A stretch of DNA of 64,000 nt, taken from positions 13,376 through 77,375 of the IMG/VR virus record IMGVR_UViG_3300042453_002958, one strand, 5' to 3'. Below, piece by piece: positions 2,817 through 64,000 of the stretch. A program made the translations under genes and the position numbers. A model generated the notes under the pieces. The model was not told the origin of the DNA and searched no databases. It worked only from the letters and a program-made list of their open reading frames with translations. The stretch's first letter is position 1; every line of letters starts with the position of its first letter. The stretch comes from a virus.

Positions 2817-3719
2817 TCACGCCGCCGGGTTTCCCGGGGGGTGGTCGTCGGGCCGGATCCGCGGCAAGAGCTCCCACGGCTTCGGCTGGCGGGCTCCGGT
2901 GATCCGGGGGTCCAGGTAGCTCTCCCGCGTGATCGAGTCTGAGGAATGCCCCAGATACGCCGTGGCGTCGCCCCCGGCGGCATCCAGGTGGCTCGCCGTG
3001 CTCTTCCGAAGGACGTGGAACTGGACATCCCTTCCGTCGCCAAGCCCGGCCCGCCGTGTGAGCGTCTTCCACCGCTTGCGAAGGGCGGTCATCGTGGCGC
3101 CCCAAAAAAACACCCGCTCGGCCCGGTGGTGCCGCAGCATGTCGTCCACCATGTCGCAGACCCACGGCGGCAGTTCGTAGGCGCGTTCCTGCCGCTTCCC
3201 CTTGCGAGTGTGCGGAGGCACGACCAACCACGGCCGCCTCCAGTTGTCGCGGGTGATCGCCAGCGTGGCCGTGATCCGCTCGCCGCTGTAGAAGAGCACC
3301 GCGATAAGCGTCGGGAAAAACAGCTTCGCCGGCACCGGCCCGACCCATCCCGTGCTGCGCTCCGCGACCGCGAACAGCCGCGACAGCTCCGCTTCCGTCA
3401 ACGCCCGCGGCGTCCGCTCGGGGACGACCTCCGCGCTGACGCACGGCCGCAGCCTAACGATGCCGCGGGCCTGCGCCAGATTCCAGAGCGCCAGCAACCC
3501 CGACCGCTCGCGGGCCACGGACTCCGGCGCGAGCTTCTCGCCGCGTTTGGCAAGAAACTGGCTCACGCGCAGATCCTCAAAATCCTCGAGCACCGCCGGG
3601 CGGCCGAGCCACCGCGAAAACTGCGTGATCGCGTGCCGCAGCAGCCGGACCGACTCCGGGCTTCGGCCGCGGAGTTTGAGCGGAACGTAGATGTCCGCGA
3701 GAAACTGATCGAGCGTCAT
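2817..3719 (-). CDS. int: Tyrosine recombinase/integrase (phage X)
   Basis: SGER, TRKG, FHVLRKS, LGHSS, Y; RBS GGAGG; about 300 aa with no obvious arm-binding domain. Confidence 0.9.
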   Translation of the reverse strand: MTLDQFLADIYVPLKLRGRSPESVRLLRHAITQFSRWLGRPAVLEDFEDLRVSQFLAKRGEKLAPESVARERSGLLALWNLAQARGIVRLRPCVSAEVVPERTPRALTEAELSRLFAVAERSTGWVGPVPAKLFFPTLIAVLFYSGERITATLAITRDNWRRPWLVVPPHTRKGKRQERAYELPPWVCDMVDDMLRHHRAERVFFWGATMTALRKRWKTLTRRAGLGDGRDVQFHVLRKSTASHLDAAGGDATAYLGHSSDSITRESYLDPRITGARQPKPWELLPRIRPDDHPPGNPAA

Positions 3720-3827
3720 GGCGTGTCCTCCCTCGTGTGGGATATAGGTCACGCTTCCGTGCGGGGAATGCCCTTCCGTGCTGGGGTGTCGGCCGTGCCG
3801 GCTTTGCCGGTCGATCCGTCCGAGAAT

Positions 3828-3848
3828 GGTTCGGTCCCACCCCCGCCA
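3828..3848 (+). other. Candidate attP core (tRNA 3'-end-like fragment)
   Basis: GGTTCGGTCCCACCCCCGCCA resembles T-loop + T-stem + acceptor strand + discriminator; just upstream of integrase. Confidence 0.35.
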
Positions 3849-3921
3849 CTTTCAACCGTTGCGATCCCCGTCGGGGACGGCAACGCAGAATGCCCGGGAA
3901 ACCGGGGCTAGTCTGTAGGGA

Positions 3922-4206
3922 ATGGAGCCCGCCATGCCAGCCCCGCGTGATCGACACCCGGGCGGACGGCCGCGGACGCGGGCGCCGTCGCCGCTGTTCG
4001 TTCGGATCGAATCCTTGGCACGGCGTAGGGGGCTTCGTCTCGACCAGCTAGCAGAAATCGCCGGCGTCGGCCGTGCAACGCTCTACCAGCTGAACGACCC
4101 GAAGGTGTCAACCGCCCGCGCGATCGCCGCAGCTCTCGGTGTGACGCTGGACCGTCTAACGCGAGACGAACCCGCCGCGAAGCCGCGCCGCCAACGGTCG
4201 GCGTGA
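3922..4206 (+). CDS. XRE/Cro-family HTH regulator
   Basis: LDQLAEIAGVGRATLYQL...AIAAALGVTLDRL; start may be 3934. Confidence 0.8.
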   Translation: MEPAMPAPRDRHPGGRPRTRAPSPLFVRIESLARRRGLRLDQLAEIAGVGRATLYQLNDPKVSTARAIAAALGVTLDRLTRDEPAAKPRRQRSA

Positions 4207-4322
4207 TATGCGGCGGATGATAACGTCGGCCACTCGCGTCACGCGGCCGGGCAACGCGCGATCGGCGGGGTGATATGCGGCACACCCGCCGCTACGGGGA
4301 ACCGCAGAAACAATGGTTCTCC
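4203..4322 (+). other. attI-like recombination site (copy X)
   Basis: GTGATATGCGGC direct repeats at 4203 and 4270, then GAACCGCAGAAACAATG-GTTCTCC; homologous to the reverse complement of 57934-58052. Confidence 0.6.
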
Positions 4323-4475
4323 AATCGATGTATCGCCGGTGCCCACGCGGTTCGCAGTAACGGTTTATCCTTCCGCCCGCTGCCGCCCCGAGCGACGCAT
4401 GATCGCCGTCGGGCATCTGAGCTATCGCCGCCGGCGCGGCGTCATGACTCGTGTCGGATCGCATCGCTCGCGTCC

Positions 4476-4778
4476 TCACTTGTCCGCCATCTGGATCGAG
4501 TGCCGCGCCATGCGCTCCGGCTGGATCCGCTTGAAGTAGACGACGAAGACAAGATTGCTCTCGCCGTGATTGCCCTGGAGCAACGCGCCTAACTCGGCCA
4601 GCCGCGTCGCGGCCCTCGTGTTGAAGCGGCGAAACGCGACGCGCAGAAACGTAGTCGGCGGGTCCGCGGCCTCGAACTGGTCGAGGAATATCTGCTCGGG
4701 CGCGTCGCGGTATCCGTCCGCGCGGTAGAGCTGCTCGGCCGCTTCGCGAATCTGCGCGGCTGTCAGTCCGGCAATCAT
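4476..4778 (-). CDS. Hypothetical protein
   Basis: ORF with GGAGG RBS. Confidence 0.5.
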   Translation of the reverse strand: MIAGLTAAQIREAAEQLYRADGYRDAPEQIFLDQFEAADPPTTFLRVAFRRFNTRAATRLAELGALLQGNHGESNLVFVVYFKRIQPERMARHSIQMADK

Positions 4779-4840
4779 TGGTCCCTCCATGCCGTGGCGG
4801 CCGTGATTCTAGCGGTTTGTCCGTTCTGTGGAAAACCCTC

Positions 4841-4869
4841 TTGACGCGATTGTCCGTGCGCCATAAAAC
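4841..4869 (+). promoter_or_regulatory. sigma70-like early promoter
   Basis: TTGACG-17-TAAAAC upstream of rightward early operon. Confidence 0.55.
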
Positions 4870-5209
4870 CCCTCCCCGTGACGCCCAACGTGGGCATCGC
4901 CGCGACGCTCACGCGATCGCGAAAACGGACTTCTCAGGCGAGGGACTGCCACATGACCGCCACCAGCAATCGCGTGGCGTCCCGCATCGACAAGGGACGC
5001 ACGAATGCGAAACCGAATCGCGGGACTGACGACACCGGAGCACGATTCGCTCGACGATGGGCCGCTCGACGATCAGGCGGCCATGGAGTTCGCCCGCTGG
5101 ACCCCGTCGCAGCGGCGGCTACGCAGGATGTTCGCACGGATGCAACGTCGGAGGATCCGACGGATTCTGCGGATGCACTCGGCCCCGGTCGCCATGGAGG
5201 GCGCCCGGG

Positions 5210-5404
5210 ATGCTGAGGCTACGCCGCAGAGTGGGCGAGCGGATCGTCGTCATCCCGCCGGACTCCGGGCCGATCCGTGTGACGGTCGTGGAAGTGGACG
5301 GGGGCAAAGTGTGGATCGGAGTGGACGCCGACGCGGACACGAAGATCTACCGCGAAGAGGTATACCGACGAGTGCTCGAGGAGCGACAGCAGCCGCAGGA
5401 ATGA
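5210..5404 (+). CDS. csrA: CsrA/RsmA-like RNA-binding protein
   Basis: MLRLRRRVGERI...VTVVEVDGGKVWIGVDA...IYREEV. Confidence 0.8.
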   Translation: MLRLRRRVGERIVVIPPDSGPIRVTVVEVDGGKVWIGVDADADTKIYREEVYRRVLEERQQPQE

Positions 5405-14150: not shown

Positions 14151-14427
14151 ACCGCCCGCCACGATCGCCGTGGTGCAATGGCTGATAAGCGGCGCGAGCG
14201 AGCACGATGTCGTCGAGGCATTGCGGGCCAAGTACCCCGGGACAGACGCCCGCAAAACCATGGCGGCCGTGTTCGAATACTTCGCGCACGAAGGAGCGCC
14301 AGACGCGGACGCCCTCCGCGGGTTCGTGCTGACCGCATACCGCGAGCTGTACCGCCGCATGCTGGACATCGGCGACTTCGATGGCGCCCGAAAAGTGCTC
14401 AAGAATATCACCGAGGTAGGACTGTGA
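14071..14427 (+). CDS. Possible terminase small subunit (start uncertain)
   Basis: Helical protein coupled (GTGA) to terminase large subunit. Confidence 0.4.
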   Translation: MSGKRKSEQSPTEATPPPPSGGIATAEPPATIAVVQWLISGASEHDVVEALRAKYPGTDARKTMAAVFEYFAHEGAPDADALRGFVLTAYRELYRRMLDIGDFDGARKVLKNITEVGL

Positions 14428-16529
14428 CGCTCTTCGGCGCCGGCTCCGGCCGCAAGCAAAAACACGCCGACCGCCACGACAAACGCAAGGCCGCAAGCGC
14501 CAGCCGCGACAAGGCGGTAAGCGCTGCCGGTCGCGACATCGGCGAACTGCCCGCCGTCGCCGATCCAGACCGCAAGGCCGCTTGCCGGCTGAACTTTCGG
14601 CTGTTTTGCGAGACCTACTACCGAGACCAGTTCTACCTCGAATGGTCCGACGACCACCTGGAGATCATCGCGGCGCTCGAGGCCGCCGTGCTGCGCGGCG
14701 AGTTGCTCGCGTTCGCCATGAGCCGCGGCAGCGGCAAAACCGCACTGATCGAGGCCGCGGCCGCGTGGGCGCTGTTCTTCGGTCACCAGCAGTTCGTGGT
14801 CATCATCGGCGCCACCGAAGAGCACGCCGCGCAGATGCTGGAAAACATCAAAGTGTCGTGCGAGACACGCGAACTCCTCGCGGCGGACTTCCCCGAAGTG
14901 TGCTACCCCATCGCCAAGCTCGAAAGAATCAACAATCGCGCCCGCGGCCAGCTGTTCCGCGGCAAGCCCACCCACATCCACTGGAACGGCGACGACGTGC
15001 AACTCCCCACGATCCCGGGATCGCCGGCATCGGGCGGAATCATCCGCGTCCGCGGCATCACCGGATCCATCCGCGGCATGGCCGTCACGCGGGCGTGCGA
15101 TGGCCGCAAGGTTCGTCCGTCGCTCGTGCTCGTGGACGATCCGCAGACCGACAAAAGCGCGCGAAGCCCGTCGCAAGTCGCCCAGCTGGAAAAAGTTTTC
15201 AAGGGGGCGGTGCTCGGGCTTGCCGGCCCCGACGTGCAAATCGCCGGACTCGTCACCGTGACCGTCGTAGCCCCGGACGACCTAGCGGAGCGACTGCTCG
15301 ACCGCGAGCGGAACCCGGCTTGCCATGGCCGGCGAATGAAACTGGTCTACGCGTGGCCGACCGAGACCGAACTATGGGAGCAATACGCCGAGTTGCGGAA
15401 GGCCGGCCAGCGGAGCGGCGTCGGAACCGCGGACGCCGACAAGCTGTTCGCCGACAACCTCGAGCGGATGACCGCGGGGTGCCGTGTCGGCTGGCCGGCA
15501 CGCAAGAAAACCGGCGAGATCCACGCTATCCAATCCGCCTACAACCTCCGCATCGACAAGGGGGAGGCCGTGTTCGCGGCCGAGTTCCAAAACGAGCCGC
15601 TGCCGCTCGTCGACCGGGCCGTCGAAGAGCTCACCGCGCCCGAGATCACGGACAAAACCAACCGCTACCCCAGGGGATTCGTCCCGCTGGCGTGCCAGTA
15701 TCTGTCGATGTTCGTCGACTGCCAAAAAGACGTTCTCTACTGGGCCGTGTGCGCGTGGGAAGACACGTTCTCCGGCTACGTCATCGACTACGGCACTTTC
15801 CCCGATCAGCGGCGGCCGTACTTCACGGTCCGCGAAGTGACGCGAAAGCTGACGGACGTGTCCAAAGCCAAAAGCGTCGAGGGGGCGCTGCTCGAGGGAC
15901 TGCACTCGCTGACCGCAAACTTCCTGGGCCGCGAGTGGAAGCGCGAAGATGGCGCCACCATGCGAATCGAGCGTTGCCTTGTGGACGCGAACTACATGAG
16001 CGACACCGTCTACCAGTTTTGCCGCGAGTCGTCGCGGGCCGGCGTGATGCCAAGCCACGGCCAGGGCGTCAAGGCGTCCAGCCTTCCATTCGCCATGTAC
16101 GCGCGGAAGCCGGGCGACCGCGTCGGGCACTACTGGCGGATCCCAAACACGGCAAAGCGTCGCGTCATCCGCCACGTCATGATCGACACGAACTACTGGA
16201 AATCGTTCATCCACGCGCGGCTCGCCACGCCGCGGGGCGATGCCGGGTGCCTGAGTCTCTTCGGCGAACACGGCGACCTGCACCGCATGCTCGCGGACCA
16301 CCTTGTCGCCGAGTATCGCGTCAGCAACACCGCCAAAGGCCGAACCGTCGAAGAGTGGAGCCCGCGGCCGGGACGGCCGGATAACCACTGGCTCGACTGT
16401 CTGGTCGGCTGCGCCGTCGGCGCGTCGATGCAGGGGGCGACGCTGTCGGGGTCGCAGGGATTCGCGGCCGCGCGAAAGCGGCGGGTTTCGTTCGCCGAGA
16501 TGCAACGCCAACGGAGGGCCGGGGCATGA
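14424..16529 (+). CDS. terL: Terminase large subunit (gpA-like)
   Basis: MSRGSGKT Walker A, LVDDPQT, FVDCQ, DNHWLDC. Confidence 0.9.
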   Translation: MTLFGAGSGRKQKHADRHDKRKAASASRDKAVSAAGRDIGELPAVADPDRKAACRLNFRLFCETYYRDQFYLEWSDDHLEIIAALEAAVLRGELLAFAMSRGSGKTALIEAAAAWALFFGHQQFVVIIGATEEHAAQMLENIKVSCETRELLAADFPEVCYPIAKLERINNRARGQLFRGKPTHIHWNGDDVQLPTIPGSPASGGIIRVRGITGSIRGMAVTRACDGRKVRPSLVLVDDPQTDKSARSPSQVAQLEKVFKGAVLGLAGPDVQIAGLVTVTVVAPDDLAERLLDRERNPACHGRRMKLVYAWPTETELWEQYAELRKAGQRSGVGTADADKLFADNLERMTAGCRVGWPARKKTGEIHAIQSAYNLRIDKGEAVFAAEFQNEPLPLVDRAVEELTAPEITDKTNRYPRGFVPLACQYLSMFVDCQKDVLYWAVCAWEDTFSGYVIDYGTFPDQRRPYFTVREVTRKLTDVSKAKSVEGALLEGLHSLTANFLGREWKREDGATMRIERCLVDANYMSDTVYQFCRESSRAGVMPSHGQGVKASSLPFAMYARKPGDRVGHYWRIPNTAKRRVIRHVMIDTNYWKSFIHARLATPRGDAGCLSLFGEHGDLHRMLADHLVAEYRVSNTAKGRTVEEWSPRPGRPDNHWLDCLVGCAVGASMQGATLSGSQGFAAARKRRVSFAEMQRQRRAGA

Positions 16530-21472: not shown

Positions 21473-23383
21473 ATGAGCGACACGATCACGGTCGACGGCG
21501 GCGAAACGATCATCGTGGCGCCGGACGCGTGCGCGACCGCTGACTGCGAAGTGCTCGTCAGCATCGTCACGGGCCAGGACGGTGCCGTCGGGCCAGCCGG
21601 ACCGCAGGGGCCGGCGGGTGCAGCTGGACAAACCGGACCCGCCGGGGCCGCCGGGCCGCAGGGACCGGCAGGGCCAGCCGGGGCAACGGGGGCAACGGGG
21701 CCAGCAGGGGCGACCGGGGCCGCAGGGCCGACCGGACCGCAGGGGCCGGCGGGGGCGGCCGGTGCCGCCGGCCCGCAAGGGCCAGCCGGGCCAGCCGGCA
21801 CGACGACCTGGGCCGGGATCACGGACAAGCCGGCCACGTTCGCGCCGTCCGATCATGCCCACGGCGCCATCACGCCCGACGGAAGGATCGGCGACAACAC
21901 GACATCAGGGCGATTCGTCGTCACGACCGACCTGGGAGACCTGGCCACGGCCGGCGCCTCGACGGGCAGGTCGCTGCTCGGCCTCGGCGGCGCGGCGACG
22001 CTGAACGTCGGCACCGCGGCCGGCACGGTGGCGGCGGGCAACGACGCGCGGCTCTCCGACGCGCGGACGCCGACGGCCCACACCCACGCCAACCTCGGCA
22101 CGGAGGATGCAAAGCAAGACTTCTACATCAACCTCGCCAACGGCCTGCCAAACATCGAAAACGGCGTGCCGACTGAGGTAAACCATCGCGCCGTGGCGTG
22201 GATTCAGAATAGAAGCCACTTCGGCGCGGGTCGGTTCAATCATTACGGCGAGTTCCCGGCACACGCCGGGCAATATAGCGCGACTTTCGGATGGGCCTGT
22301 CACGTCATCGACAACACAACTTCATCGGACGGCAATCAAGCGAAGGGCAGTTTCGCCGCCGGTTACGGCAACACTGTCGGCGCGTCGATGTCGTCGGCGC
22401 TCGGCCAATACAACCTCGTCCGAAACGTAGGGCACGCGATTGGCGCATACAACCAGGTCGGCGGATCGGGCGACCAGATTGTGGCGCACAACTGGACAAG
22501 CCCGACCGCAAGCCACTCTGTCGAGATCAGCGGAAACAGGTCATCGACGTATCCCGTAGGCACTGTGGTTGCGGTCCTTTTGGCGAGCGCCTCGAATGTG
22601 GACTCTTGGCAGCCAAACAAGGTTTCGGCGGTCTCCTACAACGCCGGAACGAACAGGACCGTGATTACGCTTGTCGCGCCGGCCGAGTTTCAAGCGGCCA
22701 CGACTGATTTTTTGGAGCAGGCGAGCGGGATCGGACAATCCAACGTCCTTACTCGCTCTCTGATCTGCACGCTAAACGGCGGCGGCGAGGGGATCGCGAT
22801 CGGATGGCGAAACATCATCCCGACATCCCGCGGGTTCGCAATCGGTACCGATCACAACCTGGTGGGCCAACACGGATTCGCGCTCGGTCGCCAGGTCGTG
22901 ACGAAGAACGCCTACCAGGGCGGCTTTGGAACCGGCTACCTGATGAACGGCTCGACGCGGCATATCGCGCAGATGAATATGTGGTGCCTGAAGCGGCGCA
23001 CCACCGACGCCACGCCGGCGGTGATGACGATCGACGGACTGTCCACGGTGGCCTCGACCAACTCCATCATTTTAGAGGAGCGGTCGGTATATCGGATGCG
23101 ATTTGAAATCGCCGGACGTGGGACTGGGGACATAGCCTACGGCGAAACAATCACGGCAACCGTCAAGCGAGACGGGTCTTCAAACCTGACGATTGTCGGG
23201 CAGGCGAGCTCTAACAAGCACACCGACAGCGGCCTTTCGACTGCATCTGCCACCCTAAAAGCAAACGGGACGCTCGACTCCGTAGAGCTGGAAGTGACCG
23301 GCGTCGCTGGGACCACGATCATCTGGCACGCATACGTCGAGGCGTCGCAAATCTCAAACGACTACACGGCAAACTCTTTGTAA
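21473..23383 (+). CDS. Collagen-like fibre/adhesin protein
   Basis: Long Gly-X-Y run at about 21575-21800; YadA-head-like repeats; lower-GC C-terminal part. Confidence 0.8.
22047..22173 (+). repeat. Direct repeat copy 1 (identical to 63874-64000)
   Basis: 127 bp identical up to the window end; diverged similarity extends back to about 21781/63611. Confidence 0.9.
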
Positions 23384-23485
23384 TGCCTGCCAAAAACAGG
23401 GAGGCGGCGACGCTCTGGCCGCTCAAATCCCGGGGTTTACACCCCGGCGCGGATCGCTACGCTGCCGGTGAACGGGTGAACACCT

Positions 23486-43602: not shown

Positions 43603-43917
43603 TCAGTCCAGGTGCTCCGCGAGCTCCCACGCGGCCCGGGCCGCGGCGGCGGCGATGTCGTCCACGCTCGGCCGCTGGCGCTTCCCGCCGCGGCGGCGGC
43701 GGTTCAACTCGTCGGCACAGTAGTTGATTTCGTCGGCGTAGTAGCCGTGGTTCGGCTGGTCCGGCCATGCTTCGAGCGTGGCGCGGCAATCGGCGATCAC
43801 GTAGAGCAGTTCGGCGTCCGATCGGCTGCGGCACAGTTTGGGGTAGGCCGCGTGGTCGATGTGCTTGGTGGCGGCGGGGTGGTCCATCCAGCCGGTCGCG
43901 TTGGTTGTGGTGCTCAT
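43603..43917 (-). CDS. Hypothetical protein
   Basis: GGAG RBS; Y.DE.....EL.RR motif. Confidence 0.6.
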   Translation of the reverse strand: MSTTTNATGWMDHPAATKHIDHAAYPKLCRSRSDAELLYVIADCRATLEAWPDQPNHGYYADEINYCADELNRRRRGGKRQRPSVDDIAAAAARAAWELAEHLD

Positions 43918-46286: not shown

Positions 46287-47273
46287 TCACGCCGCAGGAT
46301 CCTCTTTCCCCCGGAACTGGAGCACGTCCGGGGGTCCGCTCGACGCCCCCGGCGGCGTCGATGGGGGTGTCGGCTGATCGTCTAGGTCGAGCGGCGGCAG
46401 CCAACCCAAGCCACCGTAGTCCGTAGGGCATATGTCGGGATCGACATATCTCTGCTGGAGATTCGGATCCGTGTGATCGAGCAGCCGCGTGGCCGCCGAG
46501 CTGCCGCCAGCGAGGGCGGCAAAACTCGCGGCCGTCCGTCTCAGCCCGTGGAAGCCCCTGTACCGCACCCCGGCCGACTCGCACAAGACTTTCAGCGAGG
46601 CCCACTGCGACCTGGTCCGCCGATCCCACGGCCACACCAGGTCGTCGGGGCCGCGGCGGTGCTCGGCGAGCATCGCGGCCAGCTGCGGCGTGATCGACCG
46701 CTCGATGTCGCGAGTCGAGCCCTTTCTGGTCGCCCCGAGCAGCACGATCCGGCACCGCTCCAGGTCCACCTGTCCCCAGCGGAGCGCGGTGAGTGCCGAG
46801 AATCGTTCGCCGGAGCACACCGCGGCGTAGATGAGAGTCGGCCACCACCATCGGGCCGGAAGCCCGCCGACCTTGCCGATCCGCTTCTTGCCGTACCGGA
46901 TGAGCTTCTCCACGTCTTCGGCCGTGTAGGCCCGGCCGACAGGCAGCCGCGTCGGCACCTTGATCTTGGGCAGCTCCGGAAACTCCGCGGCCCACCGCTT
47001 GCGGGCGGCGTAGGTCCAGACCGCGGCGATCATGACGCGATCCTTTCGCACGCTCGCGGGACTGGGCCGCCGCCCGGCCCACGCGATCGTCTCGGCCCGC
47101 CACCGCAGGTAGCGGGCGACGACCAGGTCGTCGAAGTCGTCGGTCGTCGCCGGCCGACCCAGGAACCGCTCGAACCGATCCCACAGCATCCGGTACAGCC
47201 CGGCCGTGTGGGGCTTCAACTCCCGCAGCAGAGCGTACCGCTCCGCGACCTCCCGAACCGTCATGGCACCCAT
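46287..47273 (-). CDS. int: Tyrosine recombinase/integrase (phage Y)
   Basis: SGER, TRKG, FHGLRR, LDH, Y; homologous to 2817-3719. Confidence 0.9.
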   Translation of the reverse strand: MGAMTVREVAERYALLRELKPHTAGLYRMLWDRFERFLGRPATTDDFDDLVVARYLRWRAETIAWAGRRPSPASVRKDRVMIAAVWTYAARKRWAAEFPELPKIKVPTRLPVGRAYTAEDVEKLIRYGKKRIGKVGGLPARWWWPTLIYAAVCSGERFSALTALRWGQVDLERCRIVLLGATRKGSTRDIERSITPQLAAMLAEHRRGPDDLVWPWDRRTRSQWASLKVLCESAGVRYRGFHGLRRTAASFAALAGGSSAATRLLDHTDPNLQQRYVDPDICPTDYGGLGWLPPLDLDDQPTPPSTPPGASSGPPDVLQFRGKEDPAA

Positions 47274-54037: not shown

Positions 54038-54513
54038 TCGGCATCGACCCCGGGATCACCGGGGCGATCGCGGTGATCGGCGACGGCCAGGTGGCGTGCC
54101 GGGAGATGCCGGCCGTTGAGATCAACGGCCGGCGGCGGGTGGACCCGGCGGGGCTTACCACCGCCCTCGCGGCAATCCTGCAGGCCGGCCACCAGGTCGA
54201 GATGGCGGTGCTGGAGCACGTCCAGGGCGTGCAGGGCACCGGGGCCACGTCCGCGTTCAGTTTCGGCCGGTCGTTCGGCGTGGTCGAGGGCGTGCTGGCC
54301 GGGCTCGCGATCCCGCACACGCTGGTCCGCCCGCAGGTGTGGACCAAGGCACTGGGCGTGAGCCGGGACAAGGGCAGCCACCGGGCCGCGGCGGCCCGGC
54401 TCTGGCCGAAGCACGCGGATCTATTCGCCCGCGTGAAGGACGACGGGCGTGCCGACGCGGTGCTGCTCTGCCACTGGTACGAGAGGTGTCATGGGACGTC
54501 CGCCGTCGGCTGA
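54025..54513 (+). CDS. RuvC-like Holliday junction resolvase
   Basis: IGIDPG.TGA, LEHV, SAFSFG, P..W, DGRADA. Confidence 0.85.
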   Translation: MGLLIGIDPGITGAIAVIGDGQVACREMPAVEINGRRRVDPAGLTTALAAILQAGHQVEMAVLEHVQGVQGTGATSAFSFGRSFGVVEGVLAGLAIPHTLVRPQVWTKALGVSRDKGSHRAAAARLWPKHADLFARVKDDGRADAVLLCHWYERCHGTSAVG

Positions 54514-56605
54514 CCCGGCCAAGGCCGCAGAGCGAAAGCGGCTGCTCGACCTGGAGCGGACCCGCGAGCGTACGCGCCGCGGGGCCGACATCGGCGAGAT
54601 CCCGAAGGTGGTGGACGCCGCCCGGCGGGAGTCGTGCCGGCTCGACCTGGAGCGGTTCCTGGTCACCTACTTCCCGTACTCCACCGGGCTGTCGCCGTTC
54701 AGCGACGACCACAAGCGGGTGATCTCGCGGATCCAGGACTGCGTGACGCGCGGCGGCCGGTTCGTGAACGCGGTCTACCGCGGTTTTTCTAAGAGCACGA
54801 TCAGCGAGTTGGCGCTTATGTGGGCCGTGCTCTACGGCCACCGCCGGTTCGGCGGGATCTTCGCGGCCGAGAGCGACCTGGCCGCCAAGGCAATCAACTC
54901 GATCCGCACCGAGCTCAGCGACAACGACCTGCTCTACGACGACTTCCCAGAGGTGTGCCACGCGGTGCGGGCTCTTGAGGGCAAGGCGCAGCGTTGCAAC
55001 TCGCAGACCCACAACGGCAAGCGGACCCACATCGGCTGGAAGAAAGACACGCTCGTGCTGCCGACGATCGAGGGGTCGGTGTCAAGCGGGGCGATCATCA
55101 TGAGCCGCGGGCTCACCGGCTCGATCCTTGGGCTCCGGTGGAAAACGCCCGAGGGCCACCAGCTGCGGCCCGACTTCACGATAGTGGACGACCCGCAGAC
55201 CCGCGAGTCGGCCAGGTCGCCGGTGCAGTGCCAGGCCCGGCTGGAGATCTTAACCAAAAGTGTCATGAAGCTCGCCGGTCACACCAAGAGCATGGCGTGC
55301 GTGGTCAACGCGACGGTGATCGAGCAGGACGACATGGTGGACCAGCTGCTCGACCAGGGCCGCTACCCGGCGTGGCAGGGCGAGCGGATCCCGATGGTCC
55401 GGCAGTTCGCCGACCGCCACGAAGACTTGTGGATGGAGCGGTATCGCGAGTTGCGATGCACGTTCGCGAAGGACGTGGTGGGCGACCAGGCCCGAGCCCA
55501 CCGCGAGGCCAACGAGTTCTACGCCGCCAACCGCGACGAGATGGACCGCGGCTGTCTGGTGTCGTGGGCGTCGTGCTTCGACCCGGACGTTGAAGTCTCC
55601 GCGATCCAGCACGCATACAACGCCCTCATCGACGACGGGCCGGACGTGTTCGCGAGCGAGTTTCAACAAGCCCCCCTCAAGAACGCGGCGGAGTCGCTGG
55701 GGATCTCCCCGGACGAGGTCCGGGGCCGGGCCATCGAAATACCCGTGGGCGTGGTTCCGCGTGGGTGCGACACGCTCACGGCGTTCGTGGACGTGCAGGA
55801 GAAGCTCCTGTATTGGGCGGTGGTGGCATGGGGCTCGCAGCTCCGCGGGCACCTGGTGGCGTACGGGGCTTACCCCGAGCAGGGCCGGAGCTACTACACG
55901 CTCCGCGACTCGAAGAAGACGCTCGTGAAGGCTGCCGGCGGGGCTTCGCTGGAGGCCGCGATCCACGCGGGGCTTGAGGCCGTGGCGGCGTCGCTGCTGG
56001 GCCGGGAGTTCACCCGAGAAGATGACGACGCGGTGCTGCGGGTGGGGCAGCTGTTCGTCGATGCCAACTGGGCACAGACGCAGGGCGTCGTCCGCGACTT
56101 CGCCCGCCGGTCGTCGTTCGGGCCGCGGGTGCTGCCGACCCATGGCCGGTTCGTGGGTGCGAGCGGCCAGACGATCTCGGACAAGCGGCCGGACCGCGGC
56201 GAGCGGATCGGGCACAACTGGCGGACGAGCACGATCGGCAAGCAGCGGCACGTTCTCTACGACACGAACGCATGGAAGACGTTCGTGGCGTCCCGGCTCA
56301 AGCTGCCGGCCGCCGACCCGCAAGCGTTTACCGTCCACGCGGGCTCGCACGAGATGCTCGTGGAGCACCTGTCGGCGGAGGCCCCGGTTCGCGTCGAGTC
56401 GAAGATGCGGACGGTGGACGAGTGGAAGTTGATCCCGGGCCGCGACAACCACTGGTGGGACTGTCTCGTCGGTGCCGCGGTGGCCGCGAGCTACTCCGGC
56501 GTGACGGCCGTGGGGGCCGAGGTGGTCAAGCCCGTGCGAAAGGTCATCACCCGCGAGGAGATGGCGGCCCGCCGTGCGGCGATCATGGGCAAGATGGGCA
56601 GATGA
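54491..56605 (+). CDS. terL: Terminase large subunit (gpA-like)
   Basis: YRGFSKST, IVDDPQT, FVDVQ, DNHWWDC; homologous to 14424-16529. Confidence 0.9.
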   Translation: MGRPPSADPAKAAERKRLLDLERTRERTRRGADIGEIPKVVDAARRESCRLDLERFLVTYFPYSTGLSPFSDDHKRVISRIQDCVTRGGRFVNAVYRGFSKSTISELALMWAVLYGHRRFGGIFAAESDLAAKAINSIRTELSDNDLLYDDFPEVCHAVRALEGKAQRCNSQTHNGKRTHIGWKKDTLVLPTIEGSVSSGAIIMSRGLTGSILGLRWKTPEGHQLRPDFTIVDDPQTRESARSPVQCQARLEILTKSVMKLAGHTKSMACVVNATVIEQDDMVDQLLDQGRYPAWQGERIPMVRQFADRHEDLWMERYRELRCTFAKDVVGDQARAHREANEFYAANRDEMDRGCLVSWASCFDPDVEVSAIQHAYNALIDDGPDVFASEFQQAPLKNAAESLGISPDEVRGRAIEIPVGVVPRGCDTLTAFVDVQEKLLYWAVVAWGSQLRGHLVAYGAYPEQGRSYYTLRDSKKTLVKAAGGASLEAAIHAGLEAVAASLLGREFTREDDDAVLRVGQLFVDANWAQTQGVVRDFARRSSFGPRVLPTHGRFVGASGQTISDKRPDRGERIGHNWRTSTIGKQRHVLYDTNAWKTFVASRLKLPAADPQAFTVHAGSHEMLVEHLSAEAPVRVESKMRTVDEWKLIPGRDNHWWDCLVGAAVAASYSGVTAVGAEVVKPVRKVITREEMAARRAAIMGKMGR

Positions 56606-56681: not shown

Positions 56682-56990
56682 ATGCGTTTTCTTTCGTTGC
56701 TCGTGGTGCTGCTCGCGTCGTCGGCCGTGGCCCAGGACACGGTGATCGTGAGCCGTCGCCCGGTGACGGTCGTGCAGTCGTCGGCCCAGGACGCGGCCGT
56801 GGTGCTGGCCCGCCGCGGGGCGCTCGTGCATACCGGCTGCGGCCAGACCGAGGGCATCGGCTTCTCGACCGTCTCGGCCGAGCACGCCAAGCGGTCGTGT
56901 TGCTACTGGGGCCGGCGGACGCCGACGGACATCGGCATCGCGTGGAGCCCGCTGCGTCGCGGCTGGTTCGCGGTCGTGAGGTATCGCTGA
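56682..56990 (+). CDS. Secreted protein (possibly CAP/SCP-like)
   Basis: Signal peptide; H...EGIG...CCYW...IG.A....GW.A..RY. Confidence 0.55.
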   Translation: MRFLSLLVVLLASSAVAQDTVIVSRRPVTVVQSSAQDAAVVLARRGALVHTGCGQTEGIGFSTVSAEHAKRSCCYWGRRTPTDIGIAWSPLRRGWFAVVRYR

Positions 56991-57238
56991 TGCACGACTT
57001 CTCGCCGGTCACCGCCGTGCTGGTGTTCGCAACGTACGTCGTCATCGACGTGCTCTACGCGGCATACATCATCGCGGTCGGTGACCGGCGGGCGGTCCGT
57101 GCCGCGGCCCTTTCCGCGGTGATCTACTCGCTGCTCGCGTACGGGGTGGTGACGTTCTCGAAGAACATCGCGTACCTGGTGCCGCTGGCGGCGGGGGCGT
57201 TCGTGGGCACGTACGTGACGGTGCGGTGGCGGCGATGA
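56990..57238 (+). CDS. Small 3-TM membrane protein
   Basis: Hydrophobic helices, GAFVGT. Confidence 0.65.
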   Translation: MHDFSPVTAVLVFATYVVIDVLYAAYIIAVGDRRAVRAAALSAVIYSLLAYGVVTFSKNIAYLVPLAAGAFVGTYVTVRWRR

Positions 57239-57636
57239 GCGACGACATCGTGTGGAGGCTTCGCCGATGGGTGGACCGCGAGATCAGCGAAGATGATCCG
57301 GCCGGTGCCATTTCTGCGGCCATCGACGAGATAGTTGAGTTGCGTCACCGGCTCGCGGAGCTAGGGGCGATCGTGCGAACTTCGCGGACCAGAAAAGAGG
57401 CGACCGAGGCCGCCGACCGGCTCGCGCCGATGGACGTGCGTTCGCTGCTGCTGAATGGGTTTCATCAAGTCGATAAGGCGTGGAGGTCGCAGTCGCCGAG
57501 TCAGGTTTTGTCGCAAGAAAACTTGACGCTCTCCGACGCGGAGCGGGAGGCGATTGCGGTTGCAAGGCGGTGCCTGTTGCCATGCCACGAGGACTTCGAC
57601 GCCACACTACGCGCGTTGCTGGAACGGTTGGGCTGA
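57235..57636 (+). CDS. Hypothetical protein (possible second cassette ORF)
   Basis: DIV.RLR; TL.D.EREAI...TLR.LLERL; stop codon lies inside an attC R box. Confidence 0.55.
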   Translation: MSDDIVWRLRRWVDREISEDDPAGAISAAIDEIVELRHRLAELGAIVRTSRTRKEATEAADRLAPMDVRSLLLNGFHQVDKAWRSQSPSQVLSQENLTLSDAEREAIAVARRCLLPCHEDFDATLRALLERLG

Positions 57637-57682
57637 GAACGCCAGCGATCAGCGGCTCGTCCGCTGCATCGCGTGGTTATGC
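57634..57682 (-). other. attC integron-cassette recombination site
   Basis: Minus strand GCATAAC-CACGC-GATGCAGC-GGACGAGCC-GCTGATC-GCTGGC-GTTCTCA (R''-5-L''-centre-L'-6-R'; extra base at L'' position 4). Confidence 0.8.
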
Positions 57683-57939
57683 CGGATAGGAGTACAAAGG
57701 AGACAAGCATGAGCGATCCCAGCACTGATGTGATCCGCCGAGTGTTTGACGAAAGCGGCAAGCATTTCGTTGAGGTCGGCCCGTTTCCCGATGACCCTGG
57801 ATGCGTGGAGTTGCGCACAGTGCCGGGCGAGGGGAGCGACGAGTGGTACGGCAAGTTGAGCCTGTCCATGACGCCGAGACTGGCCCGCGAACTGGGGCGA
57901 GCCCTGATTGACGCAGCGAGCGACTGCGAGAAGGCATAA
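57640..57939 (-). mobile_element. Integron-type gene cassette (300 bp)
   Basis: Starts G/TTATGC at the attI junction and carries the complementary GCATAAC R'' in its attC. Confidence 0.7.
57709..57939 (+). CDS. Cassette-encoded hypothetical protein (76 aa)
   Basis: AAGGAG RBS; TAA inside the R box. Confidence 0.7.
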   Translation: MSDPSTDVIRRVFDESGKHFVEVGPFPDDPGCVELRTVPGEGSDEWYGKLSLSMTPRLARELGRALIDAASDCEKA

Positions 57940-58052
57940 CCAGTGTTTCTGCGGTTCTCGATAGCAGCCCCCTTGCCGCATATCACCCCGCCGATTCCGC
58001 GCCGCACGGCCGCGTGACGCTCGCCGCCGCCGCTATCAGTGCCGCATAGCAC
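57934..58052 (-). other. attI-like site (copy Y)
   Basis: GTG(A/C)TATGCGGC direct repeats, GAACCGCAGAAACACTG-GTTATGC; homologous to 4203-4322. Confidence 0.65.
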
Positions 58053-58309: not shown

Positions 58310-58525
58310 GTGGCAGTGGCGACGACCGACGAAGTGCTCGACGCAGTTGCGGCGAATCTCGCCCAGCCGAAGCGCGCCCGCACCGACGCCGGTGAGGTCG
58401 AGCAGCACGACCTCGACAAGCAGGTCGCCGCGGCCCGGTTCGTGATCGACGCCCAGGCCCGCACGGTCTCGCCGTTTCGCTCGCTGCGGTTCGCGCAGAT
58501 CGAATCCCCGGGGGCCAACGGCTGA
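58310..58525 (+). CDS. Head-tail joining protein (gpW-like)
   Basis: Homologous to 16834-17034. Confidence 0.65.
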   Translation: MAVATTDEVLDAVAANLAQPKRARTDAGEVEQHDLDKQVAAARFVIDAQARTVSPFRSLRFAQIESPGANG

Positions 58526-60294
58526 TGGGGATTCTCTCCGGACTGCTCGGGCCATCCCGGGCCACGATGCAGAGCACGATCGCGACCCAGCAGGCCGCGA
58601 TCGCGACGCTCGTGCGTGCGAAGTACGACGCCGCACAGACCACCGACCTGAACCGCCGGCACTGGGCGCTCGCCGACTACTACTCCGCCGACGCCGCCCT
58701 CTCCCCGGCCGTCCGGCAGCGGATGCGTGCTCGTGCCCGGTACGAGCTGGCCAACAACTCCTACGCCGCTGGCATGGCGTCCACCTGGTCGCACGACCTG
58801 GTCGGCACCGGCCCCCGGCTCCACCTGGATCTCGGGCCGGACGCCGACTCGGAGCTGGTCCGCCGGATCGAGCTGGCGGTCTACGACTGGTCGGTGAACA
58901 TCGACCTGGCGAAGAAGCTCCGCGTGGCCAAGCACGCGCGGGTCGGCGACGGCGAAGTGTTCGGCGTGCAGGTGACCAACCGCTCGCTCCGGGGCGTGCA
59001 GGTGGACCTGCGGCTGATTGAGAGCGACCACTGCGTGTCGCCCACCGGCTTCCCCACCGAGACCGACGTGGACGGCGTCGAGTTCGACGACGACGGCAAC
59101 CCGGCCCGGTATTGGTTCACCCGCAACCACCCCGGCTCGCTCACGCCCGGCTGGACGCTCGACGGCCGGTGGCACGCCGCCGACAAGGTCCACCACTGGT
59201 TCCACGCGACCCGCCCGGGCCAGCACCGCGGTGTGCCGGAGATCGCCCCGGCTCTCGAACTGTTCGCCATGCTGCGGCGGTTCACGCTCGCGACCGTGAC
59301 CGCCGCGGAGACCGCGGCCGACTTCGCCGCGATTCTCAAGACGACCATGCCGGCCGACGGCGGCGGGGCCGCGTCGCTGGAGACGCTGGAGACCATGCCG
59401 ATCACCCGGGGGATGGCGATCGCCGCCCCGGACGGCTGGGAGCCGGTGCAGATGAAGGCCGAGCACCCGACGAGCAGCTACGACTCGTTCGTGCGTCGGC
59501 TCCTCAACGAGATCAGCCGCTGCATCGACATGCCCTACATCGTGGCCGCGATGGACTCGTCCACCGCGAACTACTCGTCGATGCGGGGCGACTACCTGGT
59601 CTACCGCAAGCGGATCTCGGTCGAACGCAACGACATGGAGCGGGTGTTCCTCGACCCGCTGCTCGTGGCGTGGCTGGAGGAGGCCGCCCTGGTGCCGGGT
59701 CTCATCCCCGACGGGCTGCCGCCGGTCGCCGAGTGGAACTGGACTTGGACGTGGGACGGGTTCGAGCACGTAGATCCACTGAAGGAGGCCGACGCCGAGG
59801 CGGCCATGCTCGCGGCCAACACGACGACCATCGCCGAGGTCTGCCAGAAGCGCAACAAGGACTGGCGGCAGGTGCTGCGGCAGAGGGCCGTGGAGAAGAC
59901 GCTGGAGCGTGAGTTGGGTATTTCGATGGGCGAACCCGTCGCGGCCGACGCCGGCGACACCGACATCGAAGCCGCCGACGGCTACCGGCCGCCGCAGGCC
60001 GCAAGGTCCGCGGCCCGGCGCGGCCTGGAGCTGCGATCGAAATACGGCCGCGGCGGCACTGCGGTGGGCATCGCCCGGGCTCGCGACATCGCGGGCGGCC
60101 GGTCGCTCCCGCTGGACACGATCGCCCGGATGGTTTCGTTCTTCGCCCGGCACGCGGCCTACAAGGACAACCACGGCGAGGATCCGCCCTCCAACGCCGA
60201 AATCTCGTGGCTCCTGTGGGGCGGCGACGCCGGCCGGGCGTGGGCCGAGCGCATCTGGACCCGCGAGAACGCCGACGAGGAGCAGACCGCATGA
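58525..60294 (+). CDS. Portal protein, lambda family, with extra C-terminal domain
   Basis: RARARYE..NNSYA, DGEVF, RPGQHRGVP, NYSS.R, HVDPLKE; about 110-aa extension. Confidence 0.92.
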   Translation: MGILSGLLGPSRATMQSTIATQQAAIATLVRAKYDAAQTTDLNRRHWALADYYSADAALSPAVRQRMRARARYELANNSYAAGMASTWSHDLVGTGPRLHLDLGPDADSELVRRIELAVYDWSVNIDLAKKLRVAKHARVGDGEVFGVQVTNRSLRGVQVDLRLIESDHCVSPTGFPTETDVDGVEFDDDGNPARYWFTRNHPGSLTPGWTLDGRWHAADKVHHWFHATRPGQHRGVPEIAPALELFAMLRRFTLATVTAAETAADFAAILKTTMPADGGGAASLETLETMPITRGMAIAAPDGWEPVQMKAEHPTSSYDSFVRRLLNEISRCIDMPYIVAAMDSSTANYSSMRGDYLVYRKRISVERNDMERVFLDPLLVAWLEEAALVPGLIPDGLPPVAEWNWTWTWDGFEHVDPLKEADAEAAMLAANTTTIAEVCQKRNKDWRQVLRQRAVEKTLERELGISMGEPVAADAGDTDIEAADGYRPPQAARSAARRGLELRSKYGRGGTAVGIARARDIAGGRSLPLDTIARMVSFFARHAAYKDNHGEDPPSNAEISWLLWGGDAGRAWAERIWTRENADEEQTA

Positions 60295-63315: not shown

Positions 63316-64000
63316 TGGCCGAAATCAAGGGCACGAACGTCGTGGCCCCGGTGGTGCCGCTGGACACCGCCGACGTGCATCCCACGCACGCCGCGGCCTA
63401 CGGGCTGGGCGGCTATCGCACGGTCGCGAGCGACGCCGAGCGCGACGCGATCCCGGCTCCGCGTCGCGAGCAGGGGATGCTGGTGTTCGTCACCGCGACC
63501 GGCATGACGTGGCGGCTCGGGTCCGACCTGACGACGTGGACCGAAGGTGGCGGTGGTGGCGGGGCAACCGGCCCAACCGGCCCCGCTTCGACGGCGACAG
63601 GCCCGACAGGGCCGGCCGGGCCAGCCGGGACGACGACCTGGGCCGGGATCACGGACAAGCCGGCTCTGGCGGCGGCCGATCACAATCACGGCAGCATCAC
63701 GAGCGACGGCCGGATCGGCGACAACACGACCTCCGGGCGATTCGTGGTCACGACCGACCTGGGAGATCTGGCCGTAGCCACACCTTCGGGGGTGCGGACG
63801 ATGCTCGGCCTCGGCGGCGCGGCGACGCTCAACGTCGGCACCGCGGCCGGCACGGTGGCGGCCGGCGACGACTCGCGGCTCTCCGACGCGCGGACGCCGA
63901 CGGCCCACACCCACGCCAACCTCGGCACGGAGGATGCAAAGCAAGACTTCTACATCAACCTCGCCAACGGCCTGCCAAACATCGAAAACGGCGTGCCGAC
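63315..64000 (+). CDS. Fibre protein of phage Y (partial, runs off window)
   Basis: Short collagen-like run, then sequence converging on 21473-23383. Confidence 0.8.
   Translation, partial: MAEIKGTNVVAPVVPLDTADVHPTHAAAYGLGGYRTVASDAERDAIPAPRREQGMLVFVTATGMTWRLGSDLTTWTEGGGGGGATGPTGPASTATGPTGPAGPAGTTTWAGITDKPALAAADHNHGSITSDGRIGDNTTSGRFVVTTDLGDLAVATPSGVRTMLGLGGAATLNVGTAAGTVAAGDDSRLSDARTPTAHTHANLGTEDAKQDFYINLANGLPNIENGVP

Follow-up and report, generated by a model that had tools for sequence, protein, structure and literature searches.

Why does a short non-coding stretch of a freshwater phage genome recur, inverted, in a second phage whose DNA is otherwise diverged, and why does the likeness between the two copies break off after the same three bases? 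We addressed this question in a window of 64 kb, by which we mean the whole stretch of DNA that was analysed (bases 13376–77375 of the 77,375-bp IMG/VR record IMGVR_UViG_3300042453_002958). A sequence-only reading had taken the element for a conserved, portable recombination site akin to attI, located in the immunity region of a phage X and in the head region of a phage Y. The 77-kb record is indeed made up of two separate phage genomes, X (about 36.7 kb) and Y (about 41.8 kb), which join through a collagen-like fibre gene whose 5' and 3' ends are near-identical in the two (BLAST identity of 99% across 129 bp and of 89% across 404 bp). This join is probably an assembly join or the trace of a recent exchange between co-occurring phages; X and Y, being separate genomes joined in this way, are not tandem prophages, and neither copy of the element therefore lies at a prophage–host border. 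BLAST retrieved eight DNA matches between X and Y, the element being the sole non-coding and the sole inverted one, and the proteins common to both phages are 30–45% identical, in line with the divergence that had been claimed. The inverted copies enclose 54 kb, and we rejected the idea that this segment had been flipped, since the present order leaves the Y terminase and portal colinear. A tRNA-Arg(TCG) called by ARAGORN at 43741–43830 spans 90 nt within an ORF of the opposite strand and is probably a false positive, and so is unusable as an att landmark. The setting is given by the following features, in window positions except where stated.

Record bases 1–129, equal to window 23292–23420: fibre-gene duplicate 1
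21770–22173, similar to 63600–64000: fibre-gene duplicate 2
2817–3752, minus strand: X integrase (IntX), an Xer-like tyrosine recombinase whose transcription is directed away from the element
3922–4206, plus strand: XRE-type HTH gene of X, immediately preceding the element
14178–16529: X large terminase
46287–47273, minus strand: Y integrase (IntY)
54449–56605: Y large terminase
58310–58525: Y gpW-like gene
58525–60294: Y portal

Both placements were borne out. In X, the order is integrase, HTH gene, element, a leftward ORF (4476–4790, minus strand), RecT, a RecE-like exonuclease and the large terminase, followed by the portal, a protease–capsid fusion and the tape measure protein, so that the element sits between integrase plus HTH gene and RecT/RecE. 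In Y, the integrase is followed by Sak4, the large terminase, about 1.7 kb of small ORFs together with the element, the gpW-like gene and the portal, which places the element between large terminase and portal. This 1.7-kb insert, with the terminase on one side and the gpW-like gene plus portal on the other, is an unusual spot for accessory genes, and one of its small ORFs (56682–56990) has a signal-peptide-like N-terminus (MRFLSLLVVLLASSAVAQ...).

The element is non-coding and about 120 bp long. Alignment with MAFFT and BLAST confirmed that the reported near-match of 4236–4318 to the reverse complement of 57938–58020 is real and extends further, with 4195–4318 (plus strand) matching 58060–57938 (minus strand) at 78% over 119 bp. 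Each copy comprises two GTG(A/C)TATGCGGC repeats and a 21-mer core, arranged as follows.

4203–4214, plus strand: distal 12-bp repeat of X, overlapping the TGA stop of the HTH gene and forming the left edge of the portable module
4236–4249, plus strand: central box GCGTCACGCGGCCG of X, conserved between the two repeats
4270–4281, plus strand: proximal 12-bp repeat of X
4299–4319, plus strand: 21-mer core of X, GAACC-N11-GGTTC, with the putative junction at or just before GTT (4316–4318)
57937–58052, minus strand: Y copy, with repeats at 58052–58041 and 57986–57975 and the core at 57957–57937

With up to one mismatch, the 12-mer GTGATATGCGGC occurs four times in the 64 kb against 0.34 expected (0/100 shuffles), at 4203 and 4270 (67 bp apart) and, on the minus strand, at 58052 and 57986 (66 bp apart), which upholds the 66–67-bp spacing of the direct repeats; no further site was found at this threshold in the whole 77-kb record. 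The 21-mer GAACCGCAGAAACAnTGGTTC is present solely at 4299–4319 (plus strand) and 57937–57957 (minus strand), against 0.00 expected. Repeats and core are essentially identical between X and Y (one mismatch in each) while the spacers have diverged, and similarity stops right after GTT, X continuing as GTTCTCC and Y as GTTATGC, as the sequence-only reading had noted.

These features bear on the idea that the element is a structured ncRNA, or else a functionless remnant of chance or of recent transfer. In favour of this, the element is non-coding and DNA does pass between X and Y, as the 99%-identical stretch of the fibre gene attests. However, there was no Rfam match at the gathering threshold, and RNAalifold found no conserved RNA fold on either strand (-4 to -6 kcal/mol) and no covarying helix beyond a 5–7-bp GAACC/GGTTC mini-stem, the outcome of a check on RNA structure that had been called for at the outset. 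Repeats and core are kept while the spacers diverged, and there are some 30 family members in many studies. We therefore give very little credence to this explanation.

Further copies of the element, around 30 in all, were found in viral and metagenome contigs spanning many studies. An initial 14-mer scan was flooded by chance matches, the repeats being present in the window's own copies only. Exact-pattern scans for core plus repeats retrieved viral contigs (L038, L076, which is the same as L063, L113, L140–L145, L216, L245 and L261) and metagenome copies (L313/315/350, L318, L321, L322, L325, L334, L343, L355, L356 and L358), and an integrase-guided search added the loci L305, L307 and L309. 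All follow one plan: a repeat, about 45 bp containing CGTCACG, a second repeat and a core ending in CA(C/A)TGGTT, with the repeats 66–75 bp apart. The repeats are palindrome-like (for example, TATCACG-N8-CGTGATA) and vary in their inner bases from phage to phage (TTATCACGAC, TATGCGGC, TTATGCGGAA and CTATGCAGC), the two copies within an element co-varying. The core opens with an AGAAC-type box; its centre is variable among the family (CAGAAACA, CATAATCA), as is its left half in L305 and L309. In these two closest relatives of X, a perfect palindrome replaces the left half of the core (GATTATCC-GGTTCA-GGATAATC in L305) and CACTGGTT is retained nonetheless, the putative docking site being itself modular.

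What surrounds the element changes on both sides. Homology starts at the distal repeat, ahead of which there are at least four contexts: RusA (PF05866) in at least 13 copies; the HTH and integrase genes in the X clade; in Y, a small ORF together with the gpW-like gene and portal, L261 having an upstream stretch that resembles this one; and, in L038, a PDDEXK gene with terminase. There is no RusA in the record studied here. Tabulating the sequence after GTT, as had been proposed, gave at least 17 unrelated continuations among the roughly 30 copies and no single conserved downstream context. Conversely, one and the same first cassette lies behind three different element variants in L142, L145 and L261. 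These comparisons support the view that the element is portable between genome positions.

The sequences that follow GTT led to a second type of repeat. Comparison of the ends of contig G004 revealed an imperfect hairpin, GAGAACGCCAGCGATCAGCGG–loop–CCGCTGCATCGCGTGGTTCT, with AGAAC...GTTCT ends, of which an 18-mer occurs in >119 IMG/VR contigs and whose AGAAC-type box is the same as that opening the core of the element. The hairpins are 46 nt or roughly 88 nt long with loops of 5–7 nt or 43–47 nt. When its ends match, a hairpin has a folding energy of -19.4 kcal/mol (z -5.2); from an end stem of 5–8 bp the fold continues through an internal loop to 5 bp and then past a bulge to 6 bp, and compensatory changes are found in the upper stem. 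The structure is thus of the attC type, whereas the RYYYAAC/GTTRRRY consensus is matched no further than AAC and GTT. In four hairpin-bearing records analysed whole, the hairpins form one co-oriented cluster of 1–4 copies, and at loci that contain the element they are found on its GTT side; neither hairpins nor partner ends were found past the element, where the array stops. Phage X and its closest relative G410 contain no hairpin. The 18-mer is not enriched in 401 bacterial genomes of one phylum, that of a Pirellulaceae MAG (14 one-mismatch hits versus about 16 in a reversed control). One class with a 45-nt loop (for example, in L270, L276, L277 and L280) carries ACACAGGAG followed by ATG, that is, a Shine–Dalgarno sequence and a start codon inside the hairpin, and is reminiscent of GGA loop motifs of the CsrA type; the hairpin may thus have a second role, in regulating how its cassette is translated.

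Unique hairpin instances (n=162) reveal how the sequences on either side are linked, with the proviso that the hairpin and cassette pairs in these statistics are phylogenetically non-independent. Fifty-three pairs share the left flank only, 47 the right flank only and a single pair both. In pairs sharing the left flank, GAGAAC never differs, and differences reach the background rate from the next base on. Pairs sharing the right flank agree in the right arm, in which variant of GTT(C/A)T they carry and in loop class (96% vs 50%), and a few pairs break at the right end instead. This stepwise drop in linkage points to one sharp junction, between AAC and G on the ORF strand and immediately before GTT on the element strand.

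The units delimited by this junction are small cassettes, each consisting of an ORF with a hairpin at its 5' end and, next to the element, abutting it exactly at GTT. Among 114 unique cassettes (182–1355 bp, median 320 bp), a single ORF spans 87% of the cassette, and in 101 of the 114 it lies on the same strand as the hairpin and reads toward the element, with the stop about 4 nt ahead of AAC. Arrays of 1–7 cassettes lie inside phage early or late operons, and their cargo includes DUF551 (12 cassettes), several DNA methyltransferases and PAPS-reductase-like proteins, the rest being unknowns. The units of X and Y are laid out as follows.

57635–57680, plus strand: attC-like hairpin of Y, preceding the small ORF that ends at the Y core and marking the start of the Y cassette
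57676–57940, plus strand: Y cassette, with start GTTATGCC (57676–57683), ORF 57709–57939 and end GGCATAAC (57933–57940)
4316–4831, minus strand: cassette-like unit of X, with a promoter-like site (4834–4806), ORF 4476–4790 and end motif GGAGAAC (4322–4316)

The ends of a cassette, GTTnnnnn...nnnnnAAC, are mutually complementary, the sequence that follows the GTT closing hairpin k pairing with the one that precedes AAC in hairpin k+1. Within a cassette, the two ends pair at 4.65 of 7 positions, compared with 3.18 +/- 0.11 for shuffled partners (0/10,000) and 3.10 for pairing with the hairpin's own left end. As there are 33 distinct start octamers, it is the pairing and not a fixed sequence that is conserved. 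Cassettes adjacent to the element keep it, at 8 of 10 positions in Y, where GTTATGCC and GGCATAAC are complementary, and at 10 of 10 in L245. Such complementarity would be expected if cassettes became circular and their ends closed the hairpin stem, and is a hallmark of integron cassettes. By comparison, then, the cassettes have the properties of mobile units: their flanks assort independently, linkage breaks at a single point and their ends are paired. Many cassette ORFs terminate in ...LLERLG* or ...LLERTK* (for example, at 57600–57637), with the stop within the end box before AAC, so that the end of the protein and the recombination box overlap in such cassettes. A small palindrome, GTTCTCGAAGAAC, at 57154–57166 consists of a start box followed directly by an end box and may be an empty junction or a product of chance.

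The unit of X has no hairpin of its own and is recognizable by its end motifs only. That its leftward ORF may be cassette-derived had been suggested beforehand, and the ORF does behave like a cassette: a homologue adjoins the element in L076, and a hairpin arm can take the place of the core beside it, as described below. By contrast, the weak look-alike of an attC right half that had been seen at 4799–4818 did not hold up, as there is no hairpin and what is present is a cassette-end-like CCACAGAAC at 4831–4823 (minus strand), with which the neighbouring unit ends.

Population data likewise place the junction at GTT. Four contigs end 0–2 nt from GTT, namely G004 (49 kb, '100% complete'), the record of L305, L309 and L343. 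The last of these ends 2 nt past GTT, and in the same metagenome (Ga0208086) L322 and L334 have the same 78 nt plus core as L343 and then different continuations. L343 thus continues into both, which indicates a branch in the assembly graph and the coexistence of two variants, and accounts for contigs ending at GTT. The two ends of G004 overlap by 4 nt and, when joined, form a regular cassette–element junction. Logan contigs of four lake or freshwater runs, mapped on 3400–5400, diverge at 4316–4320, where loose ends cluster on both sides. In run X4, three contigs put the reverse complement of a hairpin arm before 4316 in place of the core, so that one ORF region can be preceded by a hairpin or by the element, the two having about 6 bp in common. 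From these data we infer a recombination junction at GTT.

Contigs that end at the core are also what a cos or packaging site might yield, the core being a rotationally symmetric nicking site and the repeats phage-specific terminase-binding sites. The architecture is like that of lambda cosN plus cosB, and in several relatives (L038, L144) the element lies 0.5–4 kb before the terminase genes. However, the X element is 10 kb from the large terminase, which an endonuclease gene already abuts, and the Y element has the terminase on one side and the portal on the other. In G004 the overlap of the ends is just 4 nt, and the break falls at a cassette junction; graph branching explains the contig ends, and the complementary cassette ends would be left unexplained. 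With a position that differs between X and Y, this explanation is very improbable.

The swap in run X4 bears equally on a different alternative, namely that the element is a passive regulatory boundary (promoter/operator, or terminator plus promoter) for the backbone gene that follows, whether RusA, the gpW-like gene plus portal or the integrase. Cassettes would insert beside such a boundary, AGAAC would be part of the last cassette and the element would never recombine. On the ORF strand the element does always lie between a cassette stop and a backbone gene (RusA in at least 13 copies). Its repeats are palindrome-like as in operators, their specificity varies by phage like that of immunity groups, and in the X clade the element adjoins an HTH gene. 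Unlike operators, however, the repeats occur nowhere else in the 77-kb record, and no sigma-70-like promoter or terminator was found in the X or the Y copy. Y has the same repeats without a homologue of the X HTH protein, and X and Y have no high-identity DNA-binding protein in common. The AGAAC-type box is common to core and hairpins and the interior of a hairpin can replace the core at the same base; the near-invariant core end in otherwise diverged phages would also go unexplained. We consider a purely regulatory boundary unlikely, and a regulatory role may coexist with a recombination role of the element.

Which enzyme might act at this site? IntX and IntY are Phage_integrase proteins of about 300 aa with weak matches to the XerD, XerC and XerA models of NCBIfam and no match to the integron-integrase model TIGR02249 at E <= 0.01; no integrase of the IntI type was found. 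IntX retains the catalytic residues R, K, H, R and Y but lacks an arm-binding domain. A PDB sequence search with IntX gave no hit, and the structures nearest to its AF2 model (pLDDT 83) were XerA and XerH, VchIntIA (2a3v) ranking 13th. One Xer-like tyrosine recombinase, 28–33% identical to IntX, was present in each of five element-bearing records tested (5/5), in none of them adjacent to the element. In X and its clade (L305, L307 and L309) the order integrase–HTH–element is kept, with the HTH gene in between and a divergent arrangement, whereas the integrase is at least 10 kb away in at least 13 RusA-side copies and likewise not adjacent in Y. Since X and Y have the same repeats yet integrases that are 30% identical, and the integrase is mostly distant, the integrase is no obvious reader of the repeats. 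At a guess, the Xer-like integrase of the phage is a candidate recombinase for the element, and the two repeats are candidate accessory binding sites, by analogy with DR1 and DR2 of attI1.

The proximity of an integrase in the X clade raises the possibility that the element is a phage attP, with a core common with a bacterial attB and repeats serving as arm-type integrase sites, a role that could coexist with cassette capture. The conserved gene order and the contigs that end exactly at GTT fit this, as does a 19-mer of the core found in a Pirellulaceae MAG (L155, JALOQX010000017.1, 288–306), 30 nt after a tRNA-Arg(CCT). This 19-mer has no repeats, its contig ends 287 bp further on, and it could be an attB, a remnant or a chance match; a second 19-mer-like match in the MAG lies inside a coding region. 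L155 was the one candidate in the genome scan, and no attL, attR or attB-like split forms emerged from the metagenome scan. Rather, true copies all consist of repeats, core and a cassette-type start (GTTCTGTGG, GTTCTCAC, GTTATGC...) that pairs with the opposite cassette end. Most copies lie at least 10 kb from the integrase, beside RusA, the Y copy lies between terminase and portal, the Xer-like integrase has no arm-binding domain, and graph branching accounts for the contig ends. An attP is therefore improbable.

Together, our analyses favour, with a probability of roughly 60%, an element that is a fixed attI-like docking site ending an integron-like cassette array of a temperate freshwater phage family. 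The claim of a conserved portable recombination site thus finds support in at least four genomic contexts, the junction at GTT and the paired cassette ends, recombination at the element being deduced from comparison. Cassettes would excise as circles whose two ends close the hairpin stem, a tyrosine recombinase would act on the folded single strand, and re-insertion would occur at the GTT of the element or at another hairpin. We are less confident, at somewhat below even odds, that the system is an IntI-free, phage-borne integron analogue in which a portable 120-bp module captures single-gene circles with family-specific hairpins by means of an Xer-like phage integrase or host Xer.

Integron chemistry is the recombination of folded single-stranded DNA hairpins that shuffles one-gene cassettes. 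As generally understood, it requires IntI and arose in bacteria, phages carrying it only now and then. The phage arrays resemble integrons, especially sedentary chromosomal integrons with homogeneous attC sites, in several respects: a simple site that ends in GTT, preceded by two repeats, is the docking site in integrons and the putative one in the phages; one-gene cassettes are co-oriented, and between them lie imperfect hairpins in which AAC and GTT are conserved and which have an unpaired spacer, a bulge and a loop that varies, their sequence being homogeneous across the phage family; crossover takes place, or in the phages would take place, at a single point next to GTT; cassette ends are complementary; and the cargo includes DNA methyltransferases. 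There are differences as well. Integrons have IntI, whereas these phages have only Xer-like integrases that are usually not adjacent; the integron box is GTTRRRY, compared with GTTCTnn or GTTATnn in the phage element and hairpins; classical integron ORFs read away from attI under Pc, whereas the phage cassette ORFs face the docking site and have the hairpin at their 5' end; and the phage arrays, unlike integrons, are short and lie within early or late operons.

Two other mobile systems and two phage sites invite comparison. Arbiol and colleagues are said to have reported, in 2010, the PeSL mobile regulatory cassettes of T4-type phages, whose shuffling was reportedly ascribed to homologous recombination in the repeat. 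Like the arrays described here, PeSLs have repeated promoter/stem-loop elements around small accessory ORFs, plastic regions and mosaic junctions. However, homologous recombination in a 46-bp repeat would spread the breakpoints, unlike the one-base drop in linkage between AAC and G and the X4 swap with its roughly 6 shared bp, and it does not predict complementarity of cassette ends beyond the shared motif. CTX-phi and other IMEX elements integrate by Xer recombinases acting on a folded single strand. They provide a precedent for Xer-type tyrosine recombinases on a single-stranded DNA hairpin, but there a whole phage genome enters chromosomal dif without cassette arrays, and no dif-like 11-6-11 site was seen in the element or array here. 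Lambda attP and cosN/cosB likewise combine an invariant core with phage-specific repeated sites to one side, whereas the position of the present element is tied to neither integrase nor terminase and its flanks are cassettes.

The sole report of integron parts in phages that we found identified such parts and CALINs, with canonical attC sites detected by IntegronFinder, in 21 phages (Qi et al., 2023; PMC9892861). The phage attC sites were recombined by bacterial IntI1 and were read as fragments of bacterial integrons carried by phages (PMC9892861). Those phages likewise have attC-type sites, small cassettes, some of them with methyltransferases, and no adjacent IntI, whereas the sites analysed here are non-canonical, phage-specific, present in >119 viral contigs and accompanied by a docking element of their own (cf. 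PMC9892861). We found nothing in the literature describing this element family or IntI-independent arrays.

For the annotation of these phages, the comparisons yield a rule for cassette borders, GTTnnnnn...nnnnnAAC and then the hairpin. A large set of freshwater phage contigs has homogeneous hairpin sites of its own, a docking element and population-level cassette turnover without IntI. If the proposed mechanism is true, the enzymology of hairpin recombination would be wider than currently thought, sharp mosaic junctions in phage accessory regions would have one mechanism, and the system might offer a tractable site-specific tool. Temperate phages would then hold a private, rapidly reshuffled store of accessory genes, DNA methyltransferases included, behind a docking module that occupies at least four genome positions and would have been passed between diverged phages.
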